A DNA stretch of 64,000 bases, taken from IMG/VR virus record IMGVR_UViG_3300030107_006096, positions 20,977 to 84,976 of that record; one strand, written 5' to 3'. Position 1 is the first letter of the stretch. The number at the start of each line of letters is the position of its first letter. The notes under the pieces were generated by a model, which was not told the DNA's origin, did not search any database, and saw only the letters and a program-made list of their open reading frames with translations. Made by a program: the position numbers and the translations under genes. Source of the stretch: a virus. Positions 2 through 32,275 of this stretch are shown piece by piece.

Positions 2-2035
2 GGACCTTTTTATGATATAACCAATCAATACAATGGAGCAGACTCTTATGGTCTAGGGAGTAGAACAATTTGTGAGAATTATTCCGGAGTCCCTTGTCGA
101 AGATTAGGAAAAGATTTTGTAGATCTTAACGTGGTTCCGGGAGAAACTTATCACTACTATACAACAAGTGTAAATGTATTTGATTCTAGCAATTCAATTT
201 ACGAAAGTAATCCAAGTCAAGTTGTGAGCATCACTGTTCCATCAACGAAATCAGGATTAGTCAATCAAGGAAATTATCGTAACATATTTGATCCAGATGA
301 TGGAAACTCTTCAAGTTCAGATCATATTATTTATGATGACGGAATCGTACCAATAGAAAATACATATGCAACATACTTTGATTTAATTGAAGGGTATAGA
401 TTGGGAAATAATAACCTATCAATTCCTTTCTTTGGTTTTGTAAATCCTTTTGAAAGTCCTTTACAGCCTGGCGTAGATCATACGAACTTCCCATTATACT
501 ATAGAATATCCGGAGACGATCTAAACTACGATCCTATTGGTATTCCAATGCCAACTGATCCAACATCATATCAATATATCATGGGATATTCTCATGAAAC
601 TGACAGTGATATTACTGGTATTGATTATGAATCTAATTATAAGTTAGCATTGGGATCTTCAAATCAAAATGGTCTTGCATTAATTAATTATCTAGATTCA
701 ATAGAAACTTTATGGTTGACAAGAAATTTTCCAAATCCAAATAATGAAAATCTTAGGAGTAAACTTGAACCTTACTACCATTCAAAAATTCATTTTAGCA
801 ACATCAAAAATCTTAAAAAGTTAGTAATTAATCCAGCTAGATATGGAAACGGAAGAAACGATTATGGAGAGGATTGGTCATATAGTGGTTCTTCTTCTCA
901 GGGGGACTCGCCCGAAACATACTTAGGTTACTATAGTGGAGTATACTTAGAAAATGATATCGATATACTTGGTAACTTAGAAGTTTTAATTGCTAGAGAT
1001 TCAAATCTAGATACCTCCTTCCAAAGCATGGAATATTTTAATTTCTATGACTTAAAATCCGTAAAGCATTTGGACTTGTCAAACAACAAATTGTATGTTG
1101 TTGATTATGATATTGACTCCACACATGGCATACACAATTTAGAAAAATTATATCTAAACAACAATAAAATAGGATCAAACAGTACAGCATGGATAGAGGA
1201 CTCAGCATATCCCGATCAAAATGATTCTATGCCTTTGTTTACACAATCTTTTAGTAATTTAAATATATGTGACGTTAGTAACAACGACATAAGAACTTTA
1301 AATAATACAACTGATATAGATACCGAAGAAACATTTATGGAAAATTTAAATGCTTCTAGTAATCCAAGACTAGGAATAGACGGAGAGTTTTTGATGAAAT
1401 CTCCAAACTTGAAATACTTAAATTTAAACTCTACAAATCTTCAACAAGGGGTAAGAATTAAGAATGCTTCTAATCTAGAATTTGCCACAATCAAAGGTGG
1501 TCAACTTAGAAGGTTATCAGTTTCTTCTAATACAAGACCAGATACATTTTCAAATCTTGAGCATTTAATTCTAGGATCATCAAATGCAGAGTTCACAACA
1601 TTAAACTTGAGATACGGTAATGGAAACAATCCTCAAGGCGAATATGCAGCCGCAGGAGGAGAGGGAAATTATTACGACTATGGTTTTTCGACATATAATT
1701 TAAGATCATTAGATGTTTCCGATTGTCCTACACTACAAAGTTTACATTTACCGCATTCAAGTGACTCTTACAGTGATGTTGCGAAAAAATACTTAGAAGT
1801 AGTTAACATTAGTAATACTAAATTAGGACTGCAAGCATCATTAGATTCCTTTATGGATAATGAAGCATTTTCTCCTACAAATTATCCATCGGGTCATGTT
1901 TTAGAAGTAATAGCAAAAAATGTTAAAGATGTAAGTAATAATCCTTGTTATTTGTCTAATGGAAAGTATAATGAATTGATTTCTGCCTGGGCTTCTACAG
2001 GGAGAACTATATTGTTAACCATTGATGTTTTATAA
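2..2035 (+). CDS. Large FN3-like + leucine-rich-repeat protein, 5'-truncated by the window edge (probable virion or adhesin protein)
   Basis: The frame of the 131..2035 ORF is open back to base 2. FN3-like segment DLNVVPGETYHYYTTSVN; LRR units such as LKSVKHLDLSNNKL, LEKLYLNNNKI, LNICDVSNNDI, LKYLNLNSTNL, LRSLDVSDCPTL. Confidence 0.7.
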   Translation, partial: GPFYDITNQYNGADSYGLGSRTICENYSGVPCRRLGKDFVDLNVVPGETYHYYTTSVNVFDSSNSIYESNPSQVVSITVPSTKSGLVNQGNYRNIFDPDDGNSSSSDHIIYDDGIVPIENTYATYFDLIEGYRLGNNNLSIPFFGFVNPFESPLQPGVDHTNFPLYYRISGDDLNYDPIGIPMPTDPTSYQYIMGYSHETDSDITGIDYESNYKLALGSSNQNGLALINYLDSIETLWLTRNFPNPNNENLRSKLEPYYHSKIHFSNIKNLKKLVINPARYGNGRNDYGEDWSYSGSSSQGDSPETYLGYYSGVYLENDIDILGNLEVLIARDSNLDTSFQSMEYFNFYDLKSVKHLDLSNNKLYVVDYDIDSTHGIHNLEKLYLNNNKIGSNSTAWIEDSAYPDQNDSMPLFTQSFSNLNICDVSNNDIRTLNNTTDIDTEETFMENLNASSNPRLGIDGEFLMKSPNLKYLNLNSTNLQQGVRIKNASNLEFATIKGGQLRRLSVSSNTRPDTFSNLEHLILGSSNAEFTTLNLRYGNGNNPQGEYAAAGGEGNYYDYGFSTYNLRSLDVSDCPTLQSLHLPHSSDSYSDVAKKYLEVVNISNTKLGLQASLDSFMDNEAFSPTNYPSGHVLEVIAKNVKDVSNNPCYLSNGKYNELISAWASTGRTILLTIDVL

Positions 2036-2519
2036 TGGAGTTGAAATGGAAGATAAAAATTTTAAGAATTCATCGTTTAAAGAAAAACTAGGAATGGCAA
2101 AAAGTTTTGCTCAGTCAGTAATTTCTAGGGGAATCACCAACAAAAAAGTAGATGCTACCACAAAACAGTTAAGGGTTATTAGTTGTTTTGGTGATGGGGG
2201 AGAACTCGTTCCATGTGAGTATCTAAGAGAAAGTAAAGAAGATTCCACTAAAAGTTTTTGTGGTGGTTGTGGCTGCGGAGATAGAAAAGGAACTTGGTTA
2301 AACGCTGATGCTTCTGAGTATAGTAAATTAGATTACCCAAAAGTTTCTTGTCCCTTACAAATGCCTGGTTTCACTAACTACGAAGAAAGTGAACCCGACG
2401 AAGCAGAAGAGCCAGTTACCAGAAGATACTATATTGAAAAAATGGAAATTGAAAGAATATCTAAAGTAAAGGTATCGCTGCCTGATCCCCCAAAACAGGA
2501 AAAGAAAGAGTCTGACTGA
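2022..2519 (+). CDS. Cys-rich hypothetical protein, putative metal-binding (likely start ATG 2046)
   Basis: PCEYL, FCGGCGCGD and VSCP motifs; GGAG at 2037-2040 precedes ATG 2046. Confidence 0.55.
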   Translation: MMFYNGVEMEDKNFKNSSFKEKLGMAKSFAQSVISRGITNKKVDATTKQLRVISCFGDGGELVPCEYLRESKEDSTKSFCGGCGCGDRKGTWLNADASEYSKLDYPKVSCPLQMPGFTNYEESEPDEAEEPVTRRYYIEKMEIERISKVKVSLPDPPKQEKKESD

Positions 2520-18718: not shown

Positions 18719-19441
18719 ATGAAAAGTAAGTACAGAATCTTAAAGTTGAAAAGTGGGGAAGAGATTATTGCTAGAATTGTTGGCTCCACAAGAGAGAAAA
18801 TGACTCTAGAAAGACCTATGGTTTTTAGGACTACTTTTCAAATGGATGGTTTTGGAAGAAAGAGAGAAATTACTTTCCTCCGAGACTGGTTACAAAATAC
18901 CAACGATATTAAAATAGAAATTCCTAAAGATCATATAGCTTCATTTCTTGCTCCCAATAGTGAAGTTTCGAAATTATATGAAATGGAAAAGGAACGAGAT
19001 GACGTTCCTCCAAGTTTAAAATCTCCGGAGATTCCGGACATGAATAATGAAAGTCAATCTTCTGTATCTTCTATATTAGATGAGTTATTGAAAGAAAAGA
19101 TAAATGATGAAGAAGAAAAGTTAGAAGACTTATTGGCAAGTATGGAAGATTTTAAAGAAGATTTCCCAGATCAAATGATGGAAGAAAACGATCCGACTAC
19201 TCAGGAGTTCATAGTTATGAATATGTTATTTCCCCCGTCTATGCTAAAGGATATGATTGATAGGGGAATAATTGATCCAATGGAACTGGGTTCCATACTA
19301 GATTCATTCGGTCCAAAGGAAAATGAACATCCGGAAGGAATGAGTGATAAATATACTGGTGATGAAAATGATAGAGAAGATTTTGGCAATAAGTGGTCAG
19401 ATTGGTCGCCTGATATTAATGATTATTTAAAACCAGAATAA
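18719..19441 (+). CDS. Hypothetical protein with Sm-like N-terminal domain and acidic tail
   Basis: ILKLKSGEEIIARI N-terminus, typical of the gene between uvsW and gp55 in aquatic T4-like phages. Confidence 0.55.
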   Translation: MKSKYRILKLKSGEEIIARIVGSTREKMTLERPMVFRTTFQMDGFGRKREITFLRDWLQNTNDIKIEIPKDHIASFLAPNSEVSKLYEMEKERDDVPPSLKSPEIPDMNNESQSSVSSILDELLKEKINDEEEKLEDLLASMEDFKEDFPDQMMEENDPTTQEFIVMNMLFPPSMLKDMIDRGIIDPMELGSILDSFGPKENEHPEGMSDKYTGDENDREDFGNKWSDWSPDINDYLKPE

Positions 19442-19455
19442 TTGTTCTTCAATCC

Positions 19456-19483
19456 TTGACAAAGGCGATTTTAATCGTACAAT
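19456..19483 (+). promoter_or_regulatory. Sigma70-like promoter for gp55
   Basis: TTGACA (19456-19461), 16-nt spacer, TACAAT (19478-19483); intergenic. Confidence 0.7.
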
Positions 19484-19520
19484 AAAAAGTGTCAAGAAAA
19501 AAATATAAGGTTGAAGAAAA

Positions 19521-20102
19521 ATGAGTAAAAAGAAAAACGCAAATCATTACATTGATAACAAAGTTTTTTATCAAGCGATGATAGAGTGGAAAGAGAAAAT
19601 AAAAGAAGCAGAAGAGGTGGGAGATCCAAGACCTGCTGTTACGGAATATATCGGAAAGTGTTTCATGGATATAGCAGAACACTTAGCATATAGACCTAAT
19701 TTTATGAACTATCCATATAAAGATGAAATGATTGGCGATGGAATAGAAAATTGTATTCTGTACGCTCACAATTTTAATCCAGAAAAATCAAAAAATCCTT
19801 TTTCATATTTCACACAGATCATATACTATGCATTCTTGAGAAGAATAGAAAAGGAAAAGAAAAATTCATACATCAAATATAAGATGTTAGAAATGAATGA
19901 TCCTGAAGGTCTATTTTCGAAATACTTTAAGGATAATTTTTTCAAAGGTGAAGATGATGATAAAAGTATTAAAGACATTTTCAACCTTTCAGAAAAAGAT
20001 ATAGAAAAGTTTGAACCCAAAAAGAAAAAGAAAAGAAAGAAAAAGGCATCTCTTGATGATGTCATGGAAGATGAAGTAAATGAAGATAGCACTAATAAAT
20101 GA
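19521..20102 (+). CDS. gp55: Late-transcription sigma factor gp55
   Basis: HYIDNKVF, RPNFMNYPYKDEMIGDGIENC, NPFSYFTQIIYYAFLRRIEKEKK. Confidence 0.96.
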   Translation: MSKKKNANHYIDNKVFYQAMIEWKEKIKEAEEVGDPRPAVTEYIGKCFMDIAEHLAYRPNFMNYPYKDEMIGDGIENCILYAHNFNPEKSKNPFSYFTQIIYYAFLRRIEKEKKNSYIKYKMLEMNDPEGLFSKYFKDNFFKGEDDDKSIKDIFNLSEKDIEKFEPKKKKKRKKKASLDDVMEDEVNEDSTNK

Positions 20103-21123
20103 CACGCATTTTGGAGCTAGAGGCGATTCACAATTATTCCTAGACTACTTTATGAAATTTTTTGATGAAGTATTCTTTCCCTATGTAAAAGAAAATAATA
20201 TTAAAACTATCATTCATGCAGGTGATTTGATGGATCGCCGCAAGTTTGTAAACTTTAGTATTCTAAATCAAGTTCGCAATCGATTCATCAAACAACTCGA
20301 AGATGAAAATATTCAGATGCATTGTATTATTGGCAATCATGACATCTACTACAGAAATACTAATGATGTTAATTCTACAACAGAGTTGTTCAAGGATGAT
20401 ATTTCAATATATGAAAAGCCCACTGTGATAGATTTTGATGGCTTAAATATTGGATTTTTACCTTGGGTAAATAAAGAAAATTATGAAGAGTCAATTCAAT
20501 TTATTAAGACGGCAAATGCAGCAATTCTAGTCGGACATTTAGAGTTGGATGGATATCAGGTTCTCCGTGGAGTAAAGTATCACGGAGGAATGGATTCTAA
20601 ATTGTTTGATCGTTATGAGAAAGTTCTTTCGGGACATTTTCATTGCCGTCAAGAACAAGATAACATTTACTATCTTGGCACACAATACCAGATGACATTT
20701 GCCGACTTGAATGAAAGAAAAGGCTTTCATATTCTTGACACTGAAACTAGGGAAGTAGAGTTCATCGAAAACCCATATCAAATGTTTCATATACTAGAAT
20801 ATAATGATGAAGATGGTCCAATTGATGTTGATAAGTTAGATTTGGATTACTTAAAAGATTGTTATGTCCGTCTGGACATTCACCATAAGAAACATGCTTA
20901 CAGTTTTGATCGATTTATGGATCGGCTTTACGACGTTGGAGCCGCAAAGATCACAACTGTAGAAGAATCAATAGATGAAAATGAAGAGGAAGAACTTGTT
21001 GACTTAGCTCAGGATACTGTTACACTAATCAATAACGAAATCGATTTATTGGATGAAGTAGAAGACAAACCAAGAATGAAAAAGATAATTAAAGATCTTT
21101 ACATGGAGAGTTTATCGCTGTGA
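20080..21123 (+). CDS. gp47: Recombination endonuclease gp47 (Mre11/SbcD-like)
   Basis: DTHFG, GDLMDRRK, GNHD, SGHFH. Confidence 0.96.
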   Translation: MKIALINDTHFGARGDSQLFLDYFMKFFDEVFFPYVKENNIKTIIHAGDLMDRRKFVNFSILNQVRNRFIKQLEDENIQMHCIIGNHDIYYRNTNDVNSTTELFKDDISIYEKPTVIDFDGLNIGFLPWVNKENYEESIQFIKTANAAILVGHLELDGYQVLRGVKYHGGMDSKLFDRYEKVLSGHFHCRQEQDNIYYLGTQYQMTFADLNERKGFHILDTETREVEFIENPYQMFHILEYNDEDGPIDVDKLDLDYLKDCYVRLDIHHKKHAYSFDRFMDRLYDVGAAKITTVEESIDENEEEELVDLAQDTVTLINNEIDLLDEVEDKPRMKKIIKDLYMESLSL

Positions 21124-21674
21124 ATATTTTTGTACTGGATGAGAATCCACAAACCGCCGCACAAATGATGTGCGACAAGCATGTAGTAAAAATGATTGTA
21201 GAGTCCGGACAAATGCTTTCTACGGCATGGAGAGTTCTAGATGGAGACCAATATACGGAACTGTCTGCAAACAATCGCCGAATCAAAAGATGGAAATTAC
21301 CTTACGAAATGTTTGAGGAGATGTTATACAAAGCCTCATTTGTTGGACATCCATGTACCCAATGGACAATGGAAAATCAAAAGAACTATTATTGGTTAGC
21401 AGAACACGCATATGCTTTGTGTAGAGAATACACTTACAGATATAAAGGTAAAGAACATAAAGCACAAGATATGATTTCTTATATGCGTTATCGTAAACCT
21501 GCGAACATAAAAATGTCAGAGTCTATGACTCCATTTGCTCAAGCGATGCCCGATACATATAAGAACAAAGATGCTGTGAAAGCCTATCGTGCGTATTATC
21601 TCGGCGAAAAAACTGGGTTTGCAAAATGGAGTCACAGAGAAACTCCTACTTGGTATGAGGAGGCATTAGTTTGA
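21120..21674 (+). CDS. Pyrimidine-dimer DNA glycosylase (DenV-like) family protein
   Basis: MNIFVLD...CDKHVVKMIVESGQMLST, HPCTQW, TPFAQAMP, AYRAYY. Confidence 0.75.
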   Translation: MNIFVLDENPQTAAQMMCDKHVVKMIVESGQMLSTAWRVLDGDQYTELSANNRRIKRWKLPYEMFEEMLYKASFVGHPCTQWTMENQKNYYWLAEHAYALCREYTYRYKGKEHKAQDMISYMRYRKPANIKMSESMTPFAQAMPDTYKNKDAVKAYRAYYLGEKTGFAKWSHRETPTWYEEALV

Positions 21675-23383
21675 TAATATTCCAAACATTAAGTTGGAGA
21701 AACTTTCTCTCAACAGGAAACTATAAGACAACTGTTGATCTAACTCGTCATGATAATACACTTGTGTCTGGCGAGAATGGTGCAGGCAAATCTACAATGC
21801 TAGATGCATTGACGTTTTCTTTGTTTGGAAAATCATTTCGTGGCATCAAAATCCCACAGCTACCAAACTCTATTAATGAAAAAGACTGTGAAGTAGAAAT
21901 TAATTTTACAATCGGAAAAGATGAGTACCGAGTTGTTCGTGGACTTAAGCCTAAAAAGTTTGAGATATACAAGAATGATGATTTGCTTCCACAAGATGCA
22001 AAGTCCAAGGACTATCAAAAAATACTTGAAGAACAGATTCTCAAGATGAGTTACAAATCATTTTGTCAGGTTGTAATATTGGGATCATCAAACTATGTCC
22101 CTTTCATGCAACTTAGTGCCGCAGATCGTCGAGCGGTGGTTGAGAACCTTCTAGACATTGATATATTTTCTGCCATGAATACCCTTGTAAAGATGAGACT
22201 TCAGATAACGAAAGAGTATATCAAGGATGTTGATTATAAGATCGAGATTACAAAGAGTAAGGCTGAAGATAAACAAAAACTCATAAAGACACTTGAAAAG
22301 AAATCAAGTGATTCGGTTGAAAAGTATGAAGAGGAAATCAAAGAGAATCGAAAAATGATTTCCGAATACAATCATATAATCGAATCATATCAAACTAATA
22401 TTGAACATCTAATGAGTCAAATAAAGGATAAAGATATTATTCCTAAGTCTCTATTGAACATGGAGTCCGATGAAAAGGAATTGAAGAACAAGATTAAAAC
22501 TATTCAGAAGAACGTAAAGTTTTATGAAGAGAATGATACCTGTCCTTCATGTAAGCAAGATATACAACAACATCATCGTGATAGTGTCTTTGCAGAAAAG
22601 AAGAAAGAAAAAGAATCTATTGATTCACAATTAGAGGAACTGTCCGAGACAATCGATTCGGTTCAAAAAAGATTGAATGACATCAATGCAGTATTGACTA
22701 CTATAGAGGGAATTGAGAAGGCAATCTCAACTAAACAAAATGAGATTTCAGTTTCTTCACAATACATTGACAAGATGCAAAAGAATATTGAATCAGTTCT
22801 TACTGAAGGAAAAGAGGTTCAAGAAACCAAAGATGAATTGAACCAACTGATTGGTGAGGGAAAGAATCATGTCACAAGAAGAAAAGAGTTGGTCGAAGAT
22901 AAACATTATTATGGTATTGCTTCTACTCTTTTGAAAGACAGTGGAATCAAATCAAAAATTATCAAGCACTACTTGCCGATTATGAACAAACTGATTAACA
23001 AGTATCTTGCGGACATGGATTTCTTTTGTCAGTTCAACCTTGACGAAAACTTCAGCGAGACAATTAAGAGCCGACATCGTGACGAGTTTACCTACCATAG
23101 TTTCAGTGAAGGTGAACGATTGCGTATTGACTTGTCGTTGCTTCTTGCATGGCGAGAGATTGCACGGTTAAAGAATAGTGTGAATTGTAATCTTTTGATT
23201 CTTGATGAGGTGTTTGACTCTAGCCTTGACGGAGTTGGCACAGAAGAGTTCTTAAAGATATTAACATCGTTCGGTAATCGTGCTAACATATTTGTAATCA
23301 GTCACAAGTCTGATTCAATGACAGACAAGTTTCAGAATCATATTGTGTTTGAAAAGAAGAACAACTTCAGTAGGATAAAATGA
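21671..23383 (+). CDS. gp46: Recombination ATPase gp46 (Rad50/SbcC-like)
   Basis: GENGAGKST, zinc hook CPSC, FSEGE signature, LILDEVFDSSLD. Confidence 0.97.
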   Translation: MIIFQTLSWRNFLSTGNYKTTVDLTRHDNTLVSGENGAGKSTMLDALTFSLFGKSFRGIKIPQLPNSINEKDCEVEINFTIGKDEYRVVRGLKPKKFEIYKNDDLLPQDAKSKDYQKILEEQILKMSYKSFCQVVILGSSNYVPFMQLSAADRRAVVENLLDIDIFSAMNTLVKMRLQITKEYIKDVDYKIEITKSKAEDKQKLIKTLEKKSSDSVEKYEEEIKENRKMISEYNHIIESYQTNIEHLMSQIKDKDIIPKSLLNMESDEKELKNKIKTIQKNVKFYEENDTCPSCKQDIQQHHRDSVFAEKKKEKESIDSQLEELSETIDSVQKRLNDINAVLTTIEGIEKAISTKQNEISVSSQYIDKMQKNIESVLTEGKEVQETKDELNQLIGEGKNHVTRRKELVEDKHYYGIASTLLKDSGIKSKIIKHYLPIMNKLINKYLADMDFFCQFNLDENFSETIKSRHRDEFTYHSFSEGERLRIDLSLLLAWREIARLKNSVNCNLLILDEVFDSSLDGVGTEEFLKILTSFGNRANIFVISHKSDSMTDKFQNHIVFEKKNNFSRIK

Positions 23384-23853
23384 TGCTTGTGAAACATGGC
23401 ACCGAATCTCAAATAAAAGAAATATACGATACCTTTCGGTTGTATAAAGATATATTTCCACATCTACGATTTGATTATCTTACTCGCAAGGTTAAATCAG
23501 ATAGATGCATTTATGAAGATGATGTTGCCATCACTTACACAATCTATCAAAGAAAAAATAAAGTAGGAACGTCTTATGAGAATTTAGAGTTGAAAGCCTC
23601 CAAGGGTGATGTTATGATACATCAACTTGCAAATGCAAATCCAAGTAACGGCAAGAGCAAGGAGATCGTGCAAAGATTTCTCGAAGAGAATTGTCATGGT
23701 AAAAGAGTATGGTTGACTGTTCGTCAAAACAATGATCGTGCCGTACGCTTTTATGAAAAGATGAATTTCAAAAATGTCGGAACTGTACATTGGATGAAAG
23801 GAAAACTACCCGGATATGTCTTCTGTTATGTCACAAATAAAACCATACTATGA
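23380..23853 (+). CDS. GNAT-family acetyltransferase
   Basis: IHQLAN..SNGKSK, WLTVRQNNDRAVRFYEKMNF (GNAT motifs A and B). Confidence 0.8.
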   Translation: MMLVKHGTESQIKEIYDTFRLYKDIFPHLRFDYLTRKVKSDRCIYEDDVAITYTIYQRKNKVGTSYENLELKASKGDVMIHQLANANPSNGKSKEIVQRFLEENCHGKRVWLTVRQNNDRAVRFYEKMNFKNVGTVHWMKGKLPGYVFCYVTNKTIL

Positions 23854-25420
23854 ACGCAACAACCATGTGATTGATTCGCATGTGAATTGCAACTTTGAAG
23901 ATTTACTTGAGATGACTCCAGACGAGTTTCGTGAATGGGTCATCGAAATGCGTAAGGCAGTAAAACAAGCATGGGACACTTACGGCTGTCCTCCACGAAC
24001 CGGCAAAGATGAACAAGACATCATTGATTCTTTCAATAAGATTGCCGAGTATCCAGTTCATAAATTCACACACACCGATGAACTGTCTGACATGGACGAT
24101 GATGTAATCATCAACAAGTCTCGTCTTGGAGTGGAAGTTGATCAATGGTTCTCGAATATGTTCAAGACAAGAATCAACTACACCGAAAAAGATAATGGAT
24201 ATTCTATCTATGATCTGGTAGCCGATGATAAGAGATTGGATCAGGTTGTGAAGGGAGCGATGCGTCATCTTCGTCGTGATTCATTTTACACTCATGCACT
24301 TTCCGCGATCAAGCATGATAAGAAATATGCTGTCGTAGATGTGGGAAGTGGCGATGAATGGATGGAAGCATTCTTCAACAATCCAAATATATTTCGAGGA
24401 TATGATTTCCTACTTGAACAGGTGAAGATTCGTGACGGGGCGAACACTGGATATTTTCAGTTAGAACAGGACGACATTCTTCAGCTAACGAAGGATCAGG
24501 TGGAGAAGTGGAAGAATAAAATGGAATACCGCCATTACTCTACTTTTGATATTTCTGCAATGCCTGATGATAAAGTGTATGCAATCCGTATATATAGAAA
24601 AGGGAGAAAGGTATTTCCTGCTGCTTTTAAGTCTTTTAGGATAGGATATATTCAACCTGCGGTAAACTTTCCGCCAATGACTGCGAAATATTTGTATGAA
24701 AGATTCACAGAAAATATTAAAGATCAAGAACGCATTGTTATATACGACCCGTCAAGTGGGTGGGGCGGCCGCATACTCGGTGCTATGGGTTGTCGGGATG
24801 ATCGTCGGATTCACTATGTTGGCACTGACCCAAATCCTGATAATTTTCTTGATGGCGATTCTTACAGTAAGTATGAGTCTCTCGCTGATTTTTACAACAC
24901 CAAAACTTATCGCGGAAATCCATTCTTTTCCGAAACGAACTCTTACCATATTTTCAAAGAGGGTTCGGAGGAGATTGGCAAACACTCTGATTTCCAACAA
25001 TATAAAGGGAAAACAGATCTTATTTTTACATCGCCACCCTATTTCAACAGGGAAGCATACTCAGAAGACGAAAATCAATCGTACAAAAAATACGGATCGT
25101 CATATGAATCATGGAAAGAAGGTTTTCTTCGACCAACATTAACAACTTGTGTTGAGTGGTTAAAGGAAGATAGATATTTATTATGGAACGTAGCCGATGT
25201 TTTAGTGAGTGGTAAATATTTACCGATAGAGCAAGATAGTATTGACATATTAGAATCTTTAGGTATGATTTATAAGTATACTTTGAAGATGGGACTGGAA
25301 GGAATGCCAGGTCAAAATAGAGTGGGAGAAGATGGAAAGCCCAAATGTAAAAATTTCTGTCAGGTGAATGGAAAATATTTAAAGTACGAACCAGTATTTG
25401 TTTTTTATAAAGGAACTTGA
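23816..25420 (+). CDS. Phage DNA amino-methyltransferase-like protein (N6-A or N4-C)
   Basis: SAM-binding YDPSSGWGGR and catalytic-type FTSPPYF motifs; C-terminal YEPVFVF; long N-terminal extension. Confidence 0.75.
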   Translation: MSSVMSQIKPYYERNNHVIDSHVNCNFEDLLEMTPDEFREWVIEMRKAVKQAWDTYGCPPRTGKDEQDIIDSFNKIAEYPVHKFTHTDELSDMDDDVIINKSRLGVEVDQWFSNMFKTRINYTEKDNGYSIYDLVADDKRLDQVVKGAMRHLRRDSFYTHALSAIKHDKKYAVVDVGSGDEWMEAFFNNPNIFRGYDFLLEQVKIRDGANTGYFQLEQDDILQLTKDQVEKWKNKMEYRHYSTFDISAMPDDKVYAIRIYRKGRKVFPAAFKSFRIGYIQPAVNFPPMTAKYLYERFTENIKDQERIVIYDPSSGWGGRILGAMGCRDDRRIHYVGTDPNPDNFLDGDSYSKYESLADFYNTKTYRGNPFFSETNSYHIFKEGSEEIGKHSDFQQYKGKTDLIFTSPPYFNREAYSEDENQSYKKYGSSYESWKEGFLRPTLTTCVEWLKEDRYLLWNVADVLVSGKYLPIEQDSIDILESLGMIYKYTLKMGLEGMPGQNRVGEDGKPKCKNFCQVNGKYLKYEPVFVFYKGT

Positions 25421-26856
25421 AAATGGCAAAAAAGAAAAAGGGAAACCTTCTCTACATCATGAACCCTAATTGTGGATGGTGCAAGAAAGCTGATCCTGTA
25501 GTTGAGGAATTGGTCAAAGATGGATATAAAATTAAGACATTAAATGTCCAGAACCAAGATGATGCAATAAAGGCAAGAGAAGCTATTACAAAGCATGGTA
25601 TTCAATGCGGAACTCCATTGTTCCTAGATTCAAAGACAGGTAACATGGTATGTGGTTTTAGGGAAAAAGATATTCTTGAAAAATGGGCAAATGGAGAAGA
25701 GATGCCTGCTCCGCCTCCAAGAGAACAACCTCAACAGCCTCAACATGTTGAAAAAGAGACTAGAGTTAGATTGGAATATATTTGGCTGGACGGTAAAGAG
25801 ACAACTGGTATCAGGTCAAAAATTAAATTTGAAAACATTAAACTGCCTCCTGTGAATCCCCATGCTCCACCTCCTATTGATGAACTCATGGGAAAAATTC
25901 CTGATTGGTCATTTGATGGTTCAAGCACATCTCAGGCAGAAGTAGAGAATAGTGATTTAATTTTGAAGCCTGTTAAGATTGTAAGAAATAGTTTAGAACG
26001 ACAACAGCCTGGGGGTCAAATATCATTAATAGTTTTATGTGAAGTTTTCAATGTAGATGGGACGCCCCATGAGTCAAATGCTCGATATAACTTGAGATCT
26101 TTTGTTGATGAAAATGAAATGGACGATTTGGTAGTTTCCTCAGAGCAAGAGTATGTATTTTGGAACCATGACTTAGATTTGCCATCTGGTTGGGAGTCTT
26201 CGGATAAAGATGGTTCAATGGGCGAACCTTCAAATGAGGGAGATTACTATTGTGGTTTTGCATTAGACAACTCTACCGTTGGTGGTACTCATAGAATGAT
26301 TGCAGATTTCCACGCAAATGTTTGTGGTATGTGTGATATTAGTTTAAGTGGATATAATGCAGAGGTTATGAAATCCCAGTGGGAGTATCAAACAGCACCA
26401 TCTGATGTTTTAACTTCGGCAGATAATCTTTGGATTAGTAGATATCTTTTAATGAGAATTTCTGAACAAAGAGGACTAGGTATTTCTTTTGATCCTAAAC
26501 CTGTTGACGGAAATTATAATGGTTCTGGTTGTCATATTAATTTTTCCACCAAGACAATGAGAGAAGGATCAAACGAAATCGTAGAAGAAATCTGTGAGTC
26601 ACTTGCTTTAAATCACGAAAAAGCAATTTCATCTTATGGTGTGGGAAATGATAAAAGACTAACAGGAAAAAATGAAACTTCTAAAATTGATAAGTTTACA
26701 TATGGTAAAGGTGATAGATCTTGTTCTTTAAGGATTCCAGTTGGAGATTATCTTGAAGATAGAAGACCTGCTGCAAACGTAGATCCCTATGTTGCTTTTC
26801 TTAATCTGTCAGAAGTTTTGACAGATGTTAATAATAAAGTTTTAGAAAGAGTGTAG
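25417..26856 (+). CDS. Thioredoxin-like (CGWC) domain fused to type II glutamine synthetase
   Basis: N-terminal NPNCGWCKK and GTP cis-Pro motif; Pro/Gln linker; GSII motifs LEYIWLDG, WSFDGSST, EQEY, NAEVMKSQWEYQ, NGSGCHINFST, RLTGKNET, YLEDRRPAANVDPY. Confidence 0.88.
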   Translation: MKMAKKKKGNLLYIMNPNCGWCKKADPVVEELVKDGYKIKTLNVQNQDDAIKAREAITKHGIQCGTPLFLDSKTGNMVCGFREKDILEKWANGEEMPAPPPREQPQQPQHVEKETRVRLEYIWLDGKETTGIRSKIKFENIKLPPVNPHAPPPIDELMGKIPDWSFDGSSTSQAEVENSDLILKPVKIVRNSLERQQPGGQISLIVLCEVFNVDGTPHESNARYNLRSFVDENEMDDLVVSSEQEYVFWNHDLDLPSGWESSDKDGSMGEPSNEGDYYCGFALDNSTVGGTHRMIADFHANVCGMCDISLSGYNAEVMKSQWEYQTAPSDVLTSADNLWISRYLLMRISEQRGLGISFDPKPVDGNYNGSGCHINFSTKTMREGSNEIVEEICESLALNHEKAISSYGVGNDKRLTGKNETSKIDKFTYGKGDRSCSLRIPVGDYLEDRRPAANVDPYVAFLNLSEVLTDVNNKVLERV

Positions 26857-26861
26857 ACTAA

Positions 26862-27221
26862 ATGCCAAGGAAAAAAAGAATTGATAATATCACTGGTTTG
26901 AGTGATAATACTAACCTATCATATGAAGGATATCTAAAGGCTGCTTTGGCTTTAATGTCAGATCAGTTTTCAATCAGAGTTTATAAGTTGGCTCCCAAAA
27001 ATGAATATCCAATATTCGAGAGAGGGAAGGATATCAGAGTTCAATTCTACTGCAACAAAAAAAGAATATATGAATTTATCATAGAAAAGATGTTCTATTA
27101 CCAAAGCAATAGAAACAAGGAGGACAGGGCATGGATGAGAACTCATGCTTCTGTTCACCTAAATATGGTAAAGAATGCCATTATTAGGAAAGAGAAAAAT
27201 GTCTCTAAGATACCCGGATGA
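26862..27221 (+). CDS. Hypothetical protein
   Basis: 119-aa ORF packed tightly in the operon; no recognisable motif. Confidence 0.55.
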   Translation: MPRKKRIDNITGLSDNTNLSYEGYLKAALALMSDQFSIRVYKLAPKNEYPIFERGKDIRVQFYCNKKRIYEFIIEKMFYYQSNRNKEDRAWMRTHASVHLNMVKNAIIRKEKNVSKIPG

Positions 27222-27699
27222 AATTTCTTTTTTAAAAGAACAAATATCAGAATTGTTAAGATACAATGATGTTATTTTAGATGACATTGTTTACATGTAC
27301 TATGTCTATAGAGAACCTGAAAATGTTTTTGTTGCAAGAAGAAACTCAAGAAAGCCATCTACTGCTAGACAGACTCCAAAGACTGCTTTTAGTTCATTAG
27401 ACATCATCGGTAATCAACTAGTAATTAAAATTTTTGAAGCATTACACGGCCACAACAAATTTTCCAATAATGAAAATATTGGAGGAAAATTTAACATAGT
27501 CGGAAAGTTTAAAATGGTTGATGAAAGTGGAGATTATGTTCGCTATAACATGGGAGATGTGGTATACTTCAATGGTAAAACTTATATCGCTACCAGAAAT
27601 ACAACAGGCTGTACGCCAGGACATAAACATCCATATTGTGATTCGTGGAAAGTGATTGGTTTAGATGATAGTGTGGGTTACAAGGAAAGTGGTTTTTAG
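27175..27699 (+). CDS. Hypothetical protein with C-terminal CBM5/12-like carbohydrate-binding module (likely start 27199)
   Basis: YNMGDVVYFNGKTYIA...TPG...SWK resembles the ChtBD3/CBM5-12 pattern. Confidence 0.55.
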   Translation: MPLLGKRKMSLRYPDEISFLKEQISELLRYNDVILDDIVYMYYVYREPENVFVARRNSRKPSTARQTPKTAFSSLDIIGNQLVIKIFEALHGHNKFSNNENIGGKFNIVGKFKMVDESGDYVRYNMGDVVYFNGKTYIATRNTTGCTPGHKHPYCDSWKVIGLDDSVGYKESGF

Positions 27700-27710
27700 G
27701 AGTTTTCGTT

Positions 27711-28541
27711 ATTATTCTTTTAGATAACAATCAAATACTTTTTGCTAATGTTTTTCAGTCTATAAAATATTCTTCTACTGTTGATGAAGATTTTTTGAGA
27801 CACATGACTCTAAACACATATCGCTTCTACAGAAATAAATTTCAGTCTGAATATGGTGAACTTGTAATTTGTAACGACTCTAAGAATTATTGGAGGAAAG
27901 ACATTTTTCCATATTACAAGCACAGTAGAAAACAAAAAATTAAGTCTTCTGAATTGGATTGGGATTCCATCTTCAATAGCATGACAAAGATAAGAGAAGA
28001 AGTTAAAAATACTTTCCCCTATAAAAATATAACTGTTGAAAGAACAGAAGCCGACGACATCATATCAGTGATTTGTAAAAACTATAACGATGAGAAGATG
28101 TTGATAGTTTCAAGCGATAAAGACTTTCAACAACTTCAAAGATATCCCAACGTAGAACAATATAGCCCAATAAGAAAAGATTTTCTTGTGTGTGATGATC
28201 CGGAGACATTTTTATTGGATCATATAATTAAAGGTGACTCTTCAGATGGAATACCTAATATTCTATCTGATGATGATGTTTTCACAATAGAAGACAAAAG
28301 ACAAAAAGCATGTGGTAAAAAAAGAATGACCACAATCAAAGAAGACATTTCCCAGTGGTCGAATACAGATCATTGGAAAAGAAATCAAAGTCTAATTGAT
28401 TTAAATCTTATTCCAGAACAGTATCAGTCTGCTATAATTAAGGAATATGAAAAAGAACCTATTGGTAAAAGAAGTAATATATTGAATTACTTTATAACAA
28501 ACAAATTAAAAAATTTAATGTCTAACATAGAGGAGTTTTAG
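27711..28541 (+). CDS. rnh: T4-type RNase H / 5'-3' exonuclease, probable non-canonical ATT start
   Basis: NYWRKDIFPYYK, EADDII, SSDKDFQQL, KGDSSDGIPN. The conserved N-terminus (I)ILLDNNQ lies upstream of the ORF-track start, 8 nt after AGGAG. Confidence 0.9.
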   Translation: MILLDNNQILFANVFQSIKYSSTVDEDFLRHMTLNTYRFYRNKFQSEYGELVICNDSKNYWRKDIFPYYKHSRKQKIKSSELDWDSIFNSMTKIREEVKNTFPYKNITVERTEADDIISVICKNYNDEKMLIVSSDKDFQQLQRYPNVEQYSPIRKDFLVCDDPETFLLDHIIKGDSSDGIPNILSDDDVFTIEDKRQKACGKKRMTTIKEDISQWSNTDHWKRNQSLIDLNLIPEQYQSAIIKEYEKEPIGKRSNILNYFITNKLKNLMSNIEEF

Positions 28542-28546
28542 TTTCG

Positions 28547-28726
28547 ATGCCAAAGAAAAAACAGAATAATAACTATAATCAATATGAAGATTATGAAGAT
28601 GTTCGAGGAAAAGGGACAAGGAAAGAGAAGAGAAGGACTCGTCGGCACAATGAAAAAAAGTGGTTAGACGAAGTTGCTAGAGGCAATCTTGATTCTGAAA
28701 CATATGTTGATCACTTTGAAGAATGA
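28547..28726 (+). CDS. Small basic hypothetical protein (59 aa, MPKKKQNNNY...DHFEE), absent from the ORF track
   Basis: GAGGAG RBS, ATG 28547, TGA 28724-28726; fills the rnh-gp45 gap. Confidence 0.6.
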   Translation: MPKKKQNNNYNQYEDYEDVRGKGTRKEKRRTRRHNEKKWLDEVARGNLDSETYVDHFEE

Positions 28727-28741
28727 AACGGAGACTATATT

Positions 28742-29437
28742 ATGATTACTGCGACTAGCGTGAAATTGTCAAAAGAGACACTTTCAATTCTTAAAAACTT
28801 TTCTGCACACAACAGTAACTTGTTGGTTAAGCCGGGAAATGAAATTAATACAATCACACCTGCAAAGAACGTAGTTGCGAAGGCGACTGTGCAGGAAGAT
28901 TTTCCTGTTGAATTTGGAATCTGGGACTTGAATAAGTTTCTAGGAACAATTTCTCTTTTCAACGATCCTGAATTTACTTTTGATGAGAAGTGTGTTCGTA
29001 TTGAAGGCGAAGATGGTGCAAAGGTGGATTACTATTATTCCGAACCTAGACTTCTTTCTACGTTGACAAAAGATGTTAATATGCCTGAGTCAGTTGTTCA
29101 CTTTTCAATAACAGAGGATAACTTTATCTCATTACAAAGAGCAGCTTCAGTTCTACAACTTCCAGATCTTTGTATTCGATCTAACGACAATAATGAAATT
29201 TTATTGGTTGTTCTTGATAAAAAGAGTTCAACATCAAATCAATTTGCTATAACTGTTGGTGAAAATGAAACTGGTGCTAGTTTTGAATTTTACCTTAAGA
29301 TGGAGAATATTAGACTTCTTGCTGGCAATTATGACGTATCAGTTTCTAAGACTGTAGTTAGTAAGTTTTCTCATCAATCTACGGATTTAGTCTACTACAT
29401 AGCACTAGAGAATGATTCTACTTTCAGTGGAGATTGA
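28742..29437 (+). CDS. gp45: Sliding clamp gp45
   Basis: KLSKETLSILKNFS, FGIWDLNKFL, ASVLQLPDL, YYIALE. Confidence 0.95.
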   Translation: MITATSVKLSKETLSILKNFSAHNSNLLVKPGNEINTITPAKNVVAKATVQEDFPVEFGIWDLNKFLGTISLFNDPEFTFDEKCVRIEGEDGAKVDYYYSEPRLLSTLTKDVNMPESVVHFSITEDNFISLQRAASVLQLPDLCIRSNDNNEILLVVLDKKSSTSNQFAITVGENETGASFEFYLKMENIRLLAGNYDVSVSKTVVSKFSHQSTDLVYYIALENDSTFSGD

Positions 29438-30339
29438 TTATGAAAACTTTAGTGACGGGCGGTAATGGACTTGTAGGTTCAACAATCGATTCTGATTTTA
29501 AACCCACAAGAGAAGGCTTAGATCTCATGAACATAGATGAGATTTGTGAATATATTATTCACAATGACATAGATTCTATTGTCCACTGTGCTGCTAAGGT
29601 TGGTGGAATTAAGGCAAACACAGAACAACTAGGTCAATTTTATTACGATAACATATCAATCAACACAAACATTCTTGAAGCGGCAAGAAAAACAAAAGTG
29701 AAGAAGGTAGTTTCTTTTCTTTCTACTTGTGTTTTCCCAGAAGAAGCAACATACCCATTGACTTCAGATCAGATGCACAATGGAGAACCACATCCATCTA
29801 ATTACGCATATGCTTATGCAAAAAGAATGCTAGAAGTTCAGAGTAGAGCTTACAGGGATGAGTACGGTTGCAATTTTATTACGGTAATACCGTGTAATAT
29901 CTACGGTCCAAATGATAATTACAATTTGGATTCCGGACATGTTATCCCGTCTCTAATTCATAAATGTTATCTAGCGAAAAAGAATAATACAGATTTTGAA
30001 ATTTGGGGAACTGGAACTCCATACCGTGAATTTATATATTCAAAAGATGTGGGATATCTTACTCAGTGGGCATTAGAGAACTATGATGATCCAGAACCTT
30101 TAATTCTTTCTCCTGATGAGGAAATAAGCATTGCAACTATTGCTCAAGAGATTGCATGGAGAATGGGATTTGAAGGTAACATATTTTACAATCAGGAAAG
30201 AGATGGTATACATAGAAAACCATCTGATAACAGTAAAATAAAGTCACTGTTGCCTGAGTATAAGTTTGTTCCTATTGAAATGGGGCTAAAGGAAAGTATA
30301 GATTGGTTTATAAAAAATTACGATGAGGCTAGAAAATGA
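29434..30339 (+). CDS. fcl: GDP-L-fucose synthase (likely start 29440)
   Basis: GGNGLVG, HCAAKVGGI, LSTCVFP, YAYAKR, PCNIYGPND, WGTGTPYREF. Confidence 0.92.
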   Translation: MIMKTLVTGGNGLVGSTIDSDFKPTREGLDLMNIDEICEYIIHNDIDSIVHCAAKVGGIKANTEQLGQFYYDNISINTNILEAARKTKVKKVVSFLSTCVFPEEATYPLTSDQMHNGEPHPSNYAYAYAKRMLEVQSRAYRDEYGCNFITVIPCNIYGPNDNYNLDSGHVIPSLIHKCYLAKKNNTDFEIWGTGTPYREFIYSKDVGYLTQWALENYDDPEPLILSPDEEISIATIAQEIAWRMGFEGNIFYNQERDGIHRKPSDNSKIKSLLPEYKFVPIEMGLKESIDWFIKNYDEARK

Positions 30340-31325
30340 AAAGAGCATTAATTACAGGTATAAATGGTCAAGACGGATCATATCTAGCAGAGTTTCTGCT
30401 TGAAAAAGGATATGAAGTTCATGGTATTCTCAAGAGAAACTCTGTCGCAGAAAACCAGACTGCTCGTTTGGATAATTGTTATGAAGATTTACATTTATAC
30501 TATGGAGATCTAACTGATCTATCATCTTTAATTTCGATTCTACAAAAGGTACAACCCGATGAGGTTTATAACCTAGCAGCACAGTCTCATGTTCGCATTA
30601 GTTTTGATGTCCCTATCTATACTGCGTGTGCTACAGGATTGGGAGTTCTCAATGTATTTGAGGCATGTCGTCTAATATGCCCAAAGACTAAAATTTATCA
30701 AGCATCATCATCAGAGATGTTTGGAAACTGCATTGACGATGATGGATTTCAAAGAGAAACTACTGCTATGAGACCCGTAAGCCCTTACGGTTGTTCTAAA
30801 GTTTTCGCATACAACATAGCAAAGAATTATTGTCATTCGTATGATATGTTTATATCTAATGGAATTCTATTCAATCATGAATCACCAAGAAGAGGATCTA
30901 ATTTTGTAACTAGCAAAGTTGTAAAGGCAGCAGTTGCAATTAAAATGGGCAAACAAAAAGAATTAAGAATGGGCAACTTAAATGCAAGTCGTGATTGGGG
31001 TCATGCAAAGGATTATGTAAAGGCTATGTGGATGATTCTTCAGCATGACACACCGGATGACTTTGTTTGCTCCACCGGCATTTCACACAACGTAAAATAT
31101 CTTTGCGAATATACTTTCAATTCTCTTGATATGAACTATGAAGATTATATAATTACAGATGAAAAGTATCTTCGTCCAGAGGAATTGGAACATCTTAAGG
31201 GGGACTCTACTAAACTCAGAGAAACTTTAGGATGGGAACCAGATTATACTTTTGAACAAATGATAGAAGAAATGATAGACGTTGAGCTTTCCAAGCACGG
31301 ATTAAAACGAGAGGATATAGTATGA
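30336..31325 (+). CDS. gmd: GDP-mannose 4,6-dehydratase
   Basis: ALITGINGQDGSYLAE, NLAAQSHV, ASSSEMFG, GILFNHESPRRG, RDWGHAKDY. Confidence 0.97.
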   Translation: MKRALITGINGQDGSYLAEFLLEKGYEVHGILKRNSVAENQTARLDNCYEDLHLYYGDLTDLSSLISILQKVQPDEVYNLAAQSHVRISFDVPIYTACATGLGVLNVFEACRLICPKTKIYQASSSEMFGNCIDDDGFQRETTAMRPVSPYGCSKVFAYNIAKNYCHSYDMFISNGILFNHESPRRGSNFVTSKVVKAAVAIKMGKQKELRMGNLNASRDWGHAKDYVKAMWMILQHDTPDDFVCSTGISHNVKYLCEYTFNSLDMNYEDYIITDEKYLRPEELEHLKGDSTKLRETLGWEPDYTFEQMIEEMIDVELSKHGLKREDIV

Positions 31326-32275
31326 CAGTTGCAGAAGCCACAAAAGATTTTTTGTGGGTTGAAAAGTATAGACCTAAAAGCATTAATGAATGCGTTCTTC
31401 CAAACTCTATTAAAAAAACTTTCAAGCAAATGGTCGATTCTGGTGAATCTCAGAATTTGCTTTTGTCTGGAGGTGCAGGTTGCGGAAAGACAACTATTGC
31501 AAGAGCGTTGTGTAATGAATTGGGAGCAGACAATATCCTGATAAATTGTTCAGAGAATGGAAACATAGATACTCTTCGCACCACTATTCGAGAATTTGCA
31601 AGCTCTGTTTCTCTAACAAATTCAAAGAAGGTTGCTATCCTCGATGAGTTTGATTATTCGAATGCACAGAGTATTCAACCTGCACTGAGGGGAGCGATTG
31701 AAGAGTTTGCTAATAACTGTAGATTTATTCTAACTTGTAATTATAAAAACAGAATCATTTCTCCTATTCATTCTCGTTGCACGAATATCGATTTCCAAAT
31801 TCCAAACAAAGAGAAACCTATTCTCGCACTAGAGATGATGGAACGAATTAAATCTATTCTTAAAACAGAACAGGTAGATTTCGAAGACAAAGTTTTGGCA
31901 GAATTGATTCAAAAGTATTTTCCAGACTTCAGAAGAATCTTAAATGAGTTGCAAAGATATTCGGTTGGTGGTAAAATTGATGTAGGGATTCTATCTCAGA
32001 TAGGAGAACTGAATGTAAAGCAACTGATGAAGCACATGAAAGATAAAGATTTTTCAGGTGTTAGAAAATGGGTTGTTAAGAACTTGGATAATGATCAAAC
32101 ACAAATCTTCAGAAAGATATATGATGGTTTGTATGATTATTTGGAGCCACAAAGTATTCCTTTAGTGGTGTTAATTCTAGGAGAGTATCAGCATAAAGCA
32201 GCTTTCGTTGCTGACGCTGAAATAAATATGGTTGCATGTCTAGTACAAATTATGATGGAAGCAGGATTTAAATAA
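31322..32275 (+). CDS. gp44: Clamp loader large subunit gp44
   Basis: LWVEKYRP, GGAGCGKTT, ILDEFD, HSRC, FPDFRRILNELQRY. Confidence 0.96.
   Translation: MTVAEATKDFLWVEKYRPKSINECVLPNSIKKTFKQMVDSGESQNLLLSGGAGCGKTTIARALCNELGADNILINCSENGNIDTLRTTIREFASSVSLTNSKKVAILDEFDYSNAQSIQPALRGAIEEFANNCRFILTCNYKNRIISPIHSRCTNIDFQIPNKEKPILALEMMERIKSILKTEQVDFEDKVLAELIQKYFPDFRRILNELQRYSVGGKIDVGILSQIGELNVKQLMKHMKDKDFSGVRKWVVKNLDNDQTQIFRKIYDGLYDYLEPQSIPLVVLILGEYQHKAAFVADAEINMVACLVQIMMEAGFK

Follow-up and report, generated by a model that had tools for sequence, protein, structure and literature searches.

This study concerns a 64,000-nucleotide stretch of viral DNA (positions 20,977 to 84,976 of IMG/VR record IMGVR_UViG_3300030107_006096), hereafter the window, and a gene in it that encodes a thioredoxin-like module fused to a class II glutamine synthetase (GSII). 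The 84,976-base record, a virus contig of IMG/VR, is 47% complete as estimated by CheckV and has a G+C content of about 35%. An earlier, sequence-only reading had described a single open reading frame (ORF) with a CGWC domain, a GTP loop, a linker and a GSII domain, and this layout was recovered in full, with every motif in its place. The open frame from 25417 to 26856 on the plus strand is uninterrupted. Its CxxC codons, TGT GGA TGG TGC at 25471-25482, encode C17-G-W-C20, and the GTP loop corresponds to C62-G63-T64-P65.

The predicted start is the ATG at 25423 and the stop codon ends at 26856, which gives a product of 477 residues. ATG 25423 is the likely start because an AGGA precedes it at a spacing of 8 nucleotides, because an identical database copy of 477 residues (P0001) begins with MAKKKK and because the aligned homologs also begin with MA. 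The TTG at 25417 was rejected as the start on the same ribosome-binding-site spacing and homolog N-termini. The parts of the gene are as follows:

25423..26856 (+): whole gene, thioredoxin-like module plus GSII, 477 residues plus stop (open frame, identity to P0001, AlphaFold2 model)
25411..25414 (+): AGGA ribosome-binding site, 8 nucleotides ahead of ATG 25423 (sequence reading)
25423..25446 (+): Lys-rich N-terminal tail MAKKKKGN (alignment)
25447..25692 (+): thioredoxin-fold module with C17-G-W-C20, C62-G-T-P65 and C77-G-F (AlphaFold2, structure searches, alignment)
25693..25758 (+): G-E-E-[MI]-P-x-P-P segment and Pro/Gln-rich linker, residues 91-112 (conservation across partners)
25759..26052 (+): GSII N-terminal beta-grasp domain, residues ~113-210, including F-D165-G-S-S-T (Pfam Gln-synt_N at 163-210; alignments to solved structures begin at 113-116)
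26053..26853 (+): GSII catalytic domain, residues ~211-477 (Pfam Gln-synt_C, conserved residues, Foldseek)

The AlphaFold2 (AF2) model of the 477-residue protein, computed as a monomer, had a mean predicted local distance difference test score (pLDDT) of 92.1 and a predicted template modelling score of 0.82. The linker PAPPPREQPQQPQ corresponds to residues 96-108, and the ten-residue blocks in the linker region had pLDDT values of 86 and 73.

Distribution of the fusion and its glutamine synthetase domain

A search of 5.8 billion proteins identified 3240 relatives among 8000 scored candidates. The alignment contained 118 of the best 120 matches, from which P0077, a fragment, and P0108, a fish glutamine synthetase (GS), were excluded. 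Of these 118 proteins, which were from ENA, JGI, Tara, Logan and NCBI, 77 were fused, 35 were GS alone and six were N-terminally truncated gene calls. In IMG/VR, at least 579 stretches contained a GSII relative, and the fusion was found in 10 of the best 80 loci. All 10 matched the gene order of the window, which is gp47-like, gp46-like, a methylase-like gene of 534 codons, the fusion gene, small ORFs, RNase H, gp45, sugar genes and gp44. Moreover, a scan of IMG/VR with the module identified 52 loci, including 23 GS fusions, 15 of them on new contigs. All 23 were syntenic with the window, between gp46/methylase and RNase H/gp45. Similar to other auxiliary metabolic genes (AMG), the fusion gene thus lies inside a phage genome, is flanked by phage genes and is conserved among related phages.

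The sequence-only reading had itself raised the possibility of a chimera at the junction. The same in-frame junction was found in 77 of the 118 relatives, whose assemblies and sources are independent, and on 25 distinct IMG/VR contigs. An assembly chimera or a mis-joined gene pair is therefore ruled out for practical purposes. The further question of whether the architecture is already common in databases had a divided answer: there are dozens of metagenomic copies, but they are annotated only as "glutamine synthetase" (COG0174/K01915). PF00085 matched at E ≤ 1e-3 in just 4 of 39 scanned A1 members, 33 of which were fused. Given that the N-terminal domain falls under the Pfam threshold in most members, the architecture is invisible in domain databases and the copies are labelled GS only.

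The best cultured relatives of the gp46-like neighbor were those of T4-like Synechococcus phages, at 47% amino-acid identity. The window therefore belongs to an uncultured marine T4-like lineage. Cultured phages had no nucleotide match to positions 20000-32000 of the window, and no match to the N-terminal domain was found in INPHARED. The INPHARED matches spanned residues 113-474 only, and four huge-phage records (LR756502 etc.) matched the GS part at 41%. Relatives were encoded in 538 stretches of 185,579 species genomes, and only one of the best 80 was fused (L083). This locus is on a 5.6-kb contig of a metagenome-assembled genome labelled Weeksellaceae and contains gp47-like, gp46-like, the fusion gene, small ORFs and gp45. 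Because this is a phage gene order, L083 is probably a viral contig that was mis-binned into a bacterial genome.

The viral GS were separate from the sampled cellular GS on trees (79 cellular rows; 12 in a 76-row tree). The best cellular matches, from Marinimicrobia, Patescibacteria, Thermoplasmatota and Gammaproteobacteria, were 40-45% identical and lay across a supported branch from the viral clade. Assignment of a host from the GSII phylogeny was rejected, as the viral clade nested in no sampled cellular group.

Pfam Gln-synt_C (PF00120) matched the window protein with 55.1 bits (E 8.4e-15; gathering cut-off 24) and also matched all 39 A1 members. Gln-synt_N (PF03951) matched with 29.8 bits (E 4.7e-7), which is under its cut-off of 33.4. 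The best NCBIfam family was GlnII (NF041605; E 6.6e-82), and the runner-up was GlnA with 60.9 bits. Since GlnII is still the best family but the score is 275.3 bits of the 500 set as equivalog cut-off, the protein is a divergent member of the GSII class and no equivalog by NCBI's rule. Its best solved relatives by sequence were GSII of plants, Streptomyces, yeast, insects and mammals (E 4e-71 to 1e-61, residues 113-464). In Foldseek comparisons with GSII structures (Streptomyces coelicolor 4bax, maize GS1a 2d3a, plant 9wp6/4is4 and human 2qc8), residues 113-464 were matched at 35-38% identity and with template modelling (TM) scores on the target of 0.81-0.92. The closest was S. coelicolor GSII (4bax_A; E 4.4e-38, TM(target) 0.92, root-mean-square deviation 2.1). 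The TM scores against maize and human GS were 0.82-0.87 (0.86 for 2d3a_A), and the superposition on GSII covered ~365 columns. Compared with these GSII, the window protein differs in an N-terminal extension of ~110 residues with a thioredoxin fold, in an Asn that replaces the His before the flap Glu and in its GlnII score below the cut-off.

The GS motifs that the sequence-only reading had reported as kept were confirmed. They are EQEY at 241-244, E314 with W320-E321-Y322, NGSGCH at 366-371, RLTGKNET at 412-419 and EDRRP at 445-449. Residues D165, E241, E243, E314, E321, N366, G367 and H371, as well as S375, R412, E418, R432, R437, E445, R447 and R448, were conserved in 114-118 of the 118 aligned proteins; S375 and R432 were invariant and D165 was present in 118 of 118. 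From human and maize GS, we take these residues to be the metal ligands and the contacts for glutamate, ATP and ammonium. Judged from these residues and from the modelled fold, the GS domain is very probably catalytically competent and would be an active glutamine synthetase.

A reading in which the domain acts as a gamma-glutamyl ligase on a different amine, or as a scaffold without catalysis, could appeal to the shortfall against the GlnII cut-off, to the Asn by the flap Glu and to fast evolution, as the identities of the fusion protein to its relatives were 45-58%, compared with 70-98% for its neighbors. This reading is nevertheless quite improbable, because all checked residues of the metal, glutamate, ATP and ammonium pockets, whose roles we take from known GS, are conserved and the fold matches GSII closely.

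The substitution of RLTGKNET for RLTGxHET, also pointed out by the sequence-only reading, was correct; the residue before the flap Glu418 is Asn417 (window 26671-26673). Position 417 was His in 45, Asn in 20, Tyr in 10 and Lys in one of the 77 fused forms, with one gap. Among the 35 unfused forms, it was His in 22, Cys in nine, Asn in two, Tyr in one and Phe in one. In comparison, it was His in all 79 sampled cellular relatives. Variation at this position in viral GSII, fused or not, suggests a relaxed or altered constraint that applies to the phage enzymes generally.

The thioredoxin-fold module and its partners

The secondary structure of the AF2 model at residues 9-89 is b-a-b-a-b-b-a, which is a minimal thioredoxin fold (b1 9-13, a1 18-32, b2 37-41, a2 45-58, b3 66-69, b4 75-77 and a3 82-89). 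The best VIA-align match was Trx3 of A. fulgidus (Z 10.1, root-mean-square deviation 2.3, 82 aligned residues), followed by many generic thioredoxins, and the best Foldseek match of the module had an E value of 2.4e-5. PHROG 22, "thioredoxin domain" in the category nucleotide metabolism, matched at 3.3e-4. Similar to proteins of the thioredoxin, glutaredoxin and NrdH type (PF00085, PF00462), the module has the b-a-b-a-b-b-a fold, a CxxC that is at the N-terminal end of helix 1 and, in the predicted structure, a cis-Pro loop. Different from them, however, it has CGWC rather than WCGPC or CPYC, two extra cysteines, a Pro-rich tail and scores under the Pfam cut-offs. No known metal-binding or special relative with a thioredoxin fold was found, as the Foldseek search of PDB and the wide VIA-align search returned generic thioredoxins and glutaredoxins only. 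A search of the ESM Atlas with the module returned small thioredoxin-like clusters only.

C17 and C20 were present in all 77 aligned fused forms and C62 and C77 in 76 of them. In 49 module proteins with various partners, C17, C62, G63 and P65 were invariant and C20 and C77 were conserved in at least 90%. In addition, an extra pair of N-terminal cysteines was found in 46 and 44 of the 77 fused forms, although not in the protein of the window; many relatives start with MAC-x(1-2)-C and a Lys-rich stretch, unlike the MAKKKKGN of the window protein. In thioredoxin-fold proteins, the loop with the cis-Pro and the one that follows strand 4 lie on either side of the CxxC. Given this usual layout, the four thiols of the module could form a metal site or two disulfides.

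The mean pairwise identity among the 77 fusions was 71.2% for the module and 54.6% for GS, and the identity of the module exceeded that of GS in 98.6% of the 2926 pairs. The module is thus under strong constraint and is more conserved than its GS cargo. Among 1.84 billion representatives, the first 100 residues had only 167 relatives at E ≤ 1e-3, of which 61 reached E ≤ 1e-10. By its sequence relationships, the N-terminal domain is a small, distinct and rare phage module family.

The same module, at 45-68% identity, also precedes unrelated partners and is then followed by G-E-E-I-P-x-P-P whatever the partner. In the metagenomic protein P0124 it is joined to a SET domain (Pfam 1.3e-10) and in the metagenomic protein P0144 to a GNAT acetyltransferase (6.9e-11). 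It is in tandem in P0121, C-terminal on the Cys-rich P0145 and P0170, nearly alone in proteins of 130-190 residues and attached to long low-complexity proteins with repeated W..Y..W.KEN.HLP motifs. Of the 52 IMG/VR module loci, 29 had partners other than GS, and their contigs have hardly any genes in common with the window. In all loci examined, the module genes were part of, or beside, phage genes. At L165, for instance, the module gene is just upstream of genes for SSB, a UvsX-like recombinase, an exonuclease and a DnaB-like helicase.

Two further observations concern these partners. A phage family of 260-356 residues (L163-L169, L212 and others; P0125, P0127, P0131 and P0135) consists of the module, a Pro-rich linker and the W..Y..W.KEN.HLP repeats. 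Its members end either in a coiled-coil-like ...H[FL]G[VI]K or in ...KxNTKT[IV]KGL, and had no Pfam or PHROG match. The window also contains a Cys-rich ORF of 165 residues (2022-2519, plus strand; C..C, CGGCGCG and SCP), which shortly precedes the head-tail adaptor and head-closure genes and matched no Pfam or PHROG family. P0145 and P0170, whose CGWC module is C-terminal, were 53-54% identical to this ORF over their N-terminal halves.

The main rival to a role in GS chemistry starts from these partners. The module may be a general adaptor of early proteins of marine phages, with roles in localization, assembly, partner binding or structural Zn or Fe-S binding via its four cysteines and Pro-rich tail, and with no bearing on GS. 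Consistent with an adaptor are the unrelated partners (GS, SET, GNAT, Cys-rich, low-complexity and tandem), the conservation of the GEEIPxPP tail with every partner, the higher conservation of the module than of GS, the position of the L165 module gene beside replication and recombination genes and the four conserved cysteines, which would be clustered by the general layout of the fold and are atypical of a plain reductase. However, a CxxC where helix 1 begins, together with a cis-Pro loop, is the hallmark of redox-active thioredoxin-fold proteins, and an independent phage lineage with canonical Trx and Grx genes behind GS, described below, points to a real connection between GS and thiols. 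An adaptor without a role in GS chemistry is thus unlikely, although it carries appreciable weight. Rather doubtful, yet in keeping with the same partners, is a portable regulatory domain that senses redox state or metal and that marine phages attach to diverse early enzymes, namely GS, a SET methyltransferase, a GNAT acetyltransferase and proteins of the replication cluster.

The link between the module and glutamine synthetase

The sequence-only reading had proposed a self-contained redox switch. Part of this proposal stood, as the fusion is real, the GS site is intact and an independent GS-Grx-Trx-Grx cluster exists. The other part did not, as the module occurs on other enzymes, is absent in close relatives and is accompanied by no universal GS cysteine specific to the fused forms. 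Because the same module is attached to other phage enzymes, it is no GS-specific switch. The reading that we favor, with moderate confidence, is an active GSII with a thiol-based accessory module that keeps GS reduced or redox-responsive.

The independent association was identified by PF00085 searches of the records behind L011-L080 and an ORF scan. GS-Grx-Trx-Grx clusters were found in 5 of 70 unfused viral loci (L042, L055, L058, L059 and L061), which represent another marine phage lineage and are of three types that are ~80% identical. At spacings of 2-6 nucleotides, GS is followed by a Grx of 92 residues, a WCGPC Trx of 103 residues (PF00085, 90-94 bits) and a Grx of 90 residues; the example is:

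L059 7998-9943: GS-Grx-Trx-Grx block

Neighbors of the cluster encode DUF932, PcfJ-like, DUF7788/DUF2828 and poly(A)-polymerase-head proteins. Similar to the fusion, a phage GSII is thus linked to thioredoxin-fold proteins, but as separate genes. The GS of the cluster and that of the window were 41-42% identical, belonged to different clades and had different genomic contexts. As both the GS clade and the kind of thioredoxin differ, the cluster represents an independent association of GS with thiol proteins.

T4 NrdC serves ribonucleotide reductase (RNR). It is likewise conceivable that the module acts independently as a disulfide reductase of other enzymes, such as RNR, and that it is fused to GS for co-expression only. 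The match to PHROG 22, a nucleotide-metabolism family, would agree with this, as would the fact that in G001, a fused-type relative of 123 kb (68% complete), the fusion was the sole Trx/Grx-like gene found, and that G005 has a module protein of 178 residues together with RNR. The RNR large subunit (PF02867), however, was not found in the record of the window or in G001, both of which are incomplete, and no RNR domain was found among the 10 ORFs neighboring the L059 cluster. G002 and G003 had weak RNR-like matches (16.5 and 15.3 bits, compared with a cut-off of 23.9) and no module or Grx was found in them; the match of G003 passes only when summed with neighboring matches and that of G002 never does. 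Moreover, the SET and GNAT fusions are hard to explain by a reductase for RNR. A reductase that serves other enzymes is therefore improbable.

Cysteines of the GS part were also compared between fused and unfused forms. Position 179 was Cys in 48 of 77 fused and 5 of 35 unfused forms, and is Leu in the window protein. In the thiol-sensitive plastid GS2 of plants, two cysteines have reportedly been proposed as a redox-sensitive pair. The window protein has C370 (26530-26532, in GSGCH) and C434 (26722-26724, in RSCS), and both columns are Cys in the plant chain 9wp6_A (423 residues). This pair was found in only 1 of 88 fused rows, that of the window protein, so a plant-type pair cannot be the mechanism of the family and the fused forms lack a conserved pair of the plastid type. 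The reductant of plastid GS2 is a separate thioredoxin, unlike the fused module of the window. Overall, a link between GS and redox chemistry is plausible.

Related phages were compared at the same locus. The tree, built with IQ-TREE, contained 76 rows picked from 277; six N-truncated rows were omitted, as was P0093, whose 90% cluster also holds a member of 471 residues. The unfused database rows are gene calls, and the unfused state was checked on DNA for L011 and L014. Both fell in a clade of 20 rows (support 96), 11 of which were fused forms, that of the window among them, and a FastTree tree of 277 rows agreed. The GS part of the fused P0019 was 80% identical to the unfused form of its close relatives. 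A split gene was rejected as the explanation of the unfused state, as five module variants used as tblastn queries revealed no module within about 8 kb in any of L011-L080. The sole extra module match was weak (E 3e-4) and at a cellular locus (L099). A single origin of the fusion was also rejected, given that the fused state needs six changes on the 76-row tree, of which at least four are forced.

Several results count against the favored reading. In related phages L011, L012, L014, L015 and L016, GS without the module is at the same locus, so GS does not need the module. The fused state changed at least four times on the 76-row tree, as forced by well-supported branches. In the 118-row alignment, no cysteine of the GS part was both specific to the fused forms and universal among them. 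As the module is also found on SET, GNAT, Cys-rich and low-complexity partners, its role need not concern GS. The module matched Pfam Thioredoxin (PF00085) at 8.6e-5 with 22.9 bits, under the gathering cut-off of 23.5, its motif N-C-G-W-C-K differs from the WCGPC of the thioredoxin family, and the GS part is below the GlnII equivalog cut-off. Since residue 417 is variable in viral GSII, kinetics or regulation may also differ. Finally, the suggestion in the sequence-only reading that glutamine would supply amino-sugar synthesis gained no support, as the glutamine amidotransferase families PF00733, PF00117 and PF13537 had no match in the 85-kb record, despite the glycan-gene island downstream; given that the record is half complete, this absence is weak evidence.

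On the favored reading, the steps would be as follows. The GS gene has long occupied one fixed position in the replication module in a clade of uncultured marine T4-like phages, and in part of this clade GS has gained an N-terminal phage-specific module of thioredoxin fold, with a basic tail, the CGWC, two further near-invariant cysteines (one next to the cis-Pro loop, the other following strand 4) and the GEEIPxPP segment. Expressed with the replication genes, the fusion gene would encode an active GSII that converts glutamate, NH4+ and ATP to glutamine and would, most likely, provide extra glutamine in the infected cell. If the protein forms a GSII decamer, ten copies of the module would decorate it. 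The module would act as an accessory that works through its thiols, and possibly binds metal, and that keeps the GS to which it is joined reduced and active or couples its activity to redox state. GS enzymes are easily inactivated by metal-catalyzed oxidation. GS activity, assembly into a decamer, redox or metal chemistry by the module and a benefit to the phage are what we infer from the above.

Neighboring genes and implications

Two further features of the region are:

25242..25269 (+): sigma-70-like TTGACA-16-TATGAT, 11/12, within the 3' end of the upstream gene
25435..28430 (no strand assigned): block of low identity to the near-identical relatives L188/L190 (sliding 300-nucleotide identity, window 19435-29570 compared with L188)

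The upstream methylase-like gene stops at 25418-25420, and there is no intergenic space before the fusion gene. The sigma-70-like site is a possible early promoter by its sequence and is given as a lead only; the region contained 26 such sites, not above the number in shuffles (22.7 +/- 4.5). A glutamine riboswitch or another RNA element was rejected, as no Rfam family matched at its gathering threshold, and the search of the window for tRNA genes was likewise negative.

L188 and L190 were 92-98% identical to the window in nucleotides up to 25434, 54-75% from 25435 to about 28430 and about 90% thereafter. Within this block are the fusion gene, ORFs 26862-27221 and 27175-27699 and RNase H. The fusion proteins of L188/L190 were 57-58% identical to that of the window, compared with 98-99% for flanking proteins. 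Given the sharp drop in identity, with one boundary at the start of the gene, the fusion gene, the two small ORFs and RNase H were thus replaced together by recombination.

The methylase-like neighbor (23816-25420, plus strand, 534 residues) has a weak N6_N4_Mtase match at residues 401-466 only, and its N-terminal ~380 residues had no family match. It was seen in 22 of 23 relatives at 69-89% identity, with 41% for L189 and 98% for L188/L190, and is far better conserved than the GS gene. Upstream of it, an ORF of 157 residues has a weak GNAT match. Downstream of the fusion gene is a large island of glycan genes; after gp45, about 35 ORFs of 200-450 residues are on the same strand (window 29434-57917), of which the first are fcl/gmd-like by homology to related loci.

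Phage GS was previously reported as an auxiliary gene of viruses assigned to SAR86 under the Ross Ice Shelf (PMC10721903) and of "moraphages" (PMC12619734), and a review that cites viromes of oxygen-minimum zones also covers it (PMC9083009). Similar to the fusion gene, these known GS genes are carried by phages of aquatic bacteria and were interpreted as AMG of nitrogen metabolism (PMC10721903, PMC12619734). Unlike for the fusion of the window, however, a thioredoxin domain is not mentioned in the excerpts of these reports. The sequence-only reading knew of no description of the architecture, and this agrees with our results: among the matches listed, no publication on a thioredoxin-GS fusion was found, and supplementary files may list such genes. 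Thus, phage GS as AMG is already published, and the fusion with a thioredoxin-like module was not found in print. In the excerpts of the literature covered, phage GS are counted as nitrogen-cycle auxiliary genes in marine viromes and no characterized example was found.

The fusion offers a compact test case, in which an intact GSII has a built-in module, controls without the module are available from the same locus and a second lineage has separate Trx and Grx. If the module controls or protects GS, phages would tune nitrogen assimilation to the redox state of the cell. The CGWC four-cysteine module, as an undescribed phage domain family, is the more original element than the fusion. Given that architecture searches based on Pfam miss it, that several enzymes carry it and that its conservation exceeds that of its cargo, its function could explain many unannotated proteins of marine phages. 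If the module is, moreover, a portable sensor, several takeover activities would come under joint control of the redox state in the infected cell, with light and dark or oxidative stress in surface water as possible cues.

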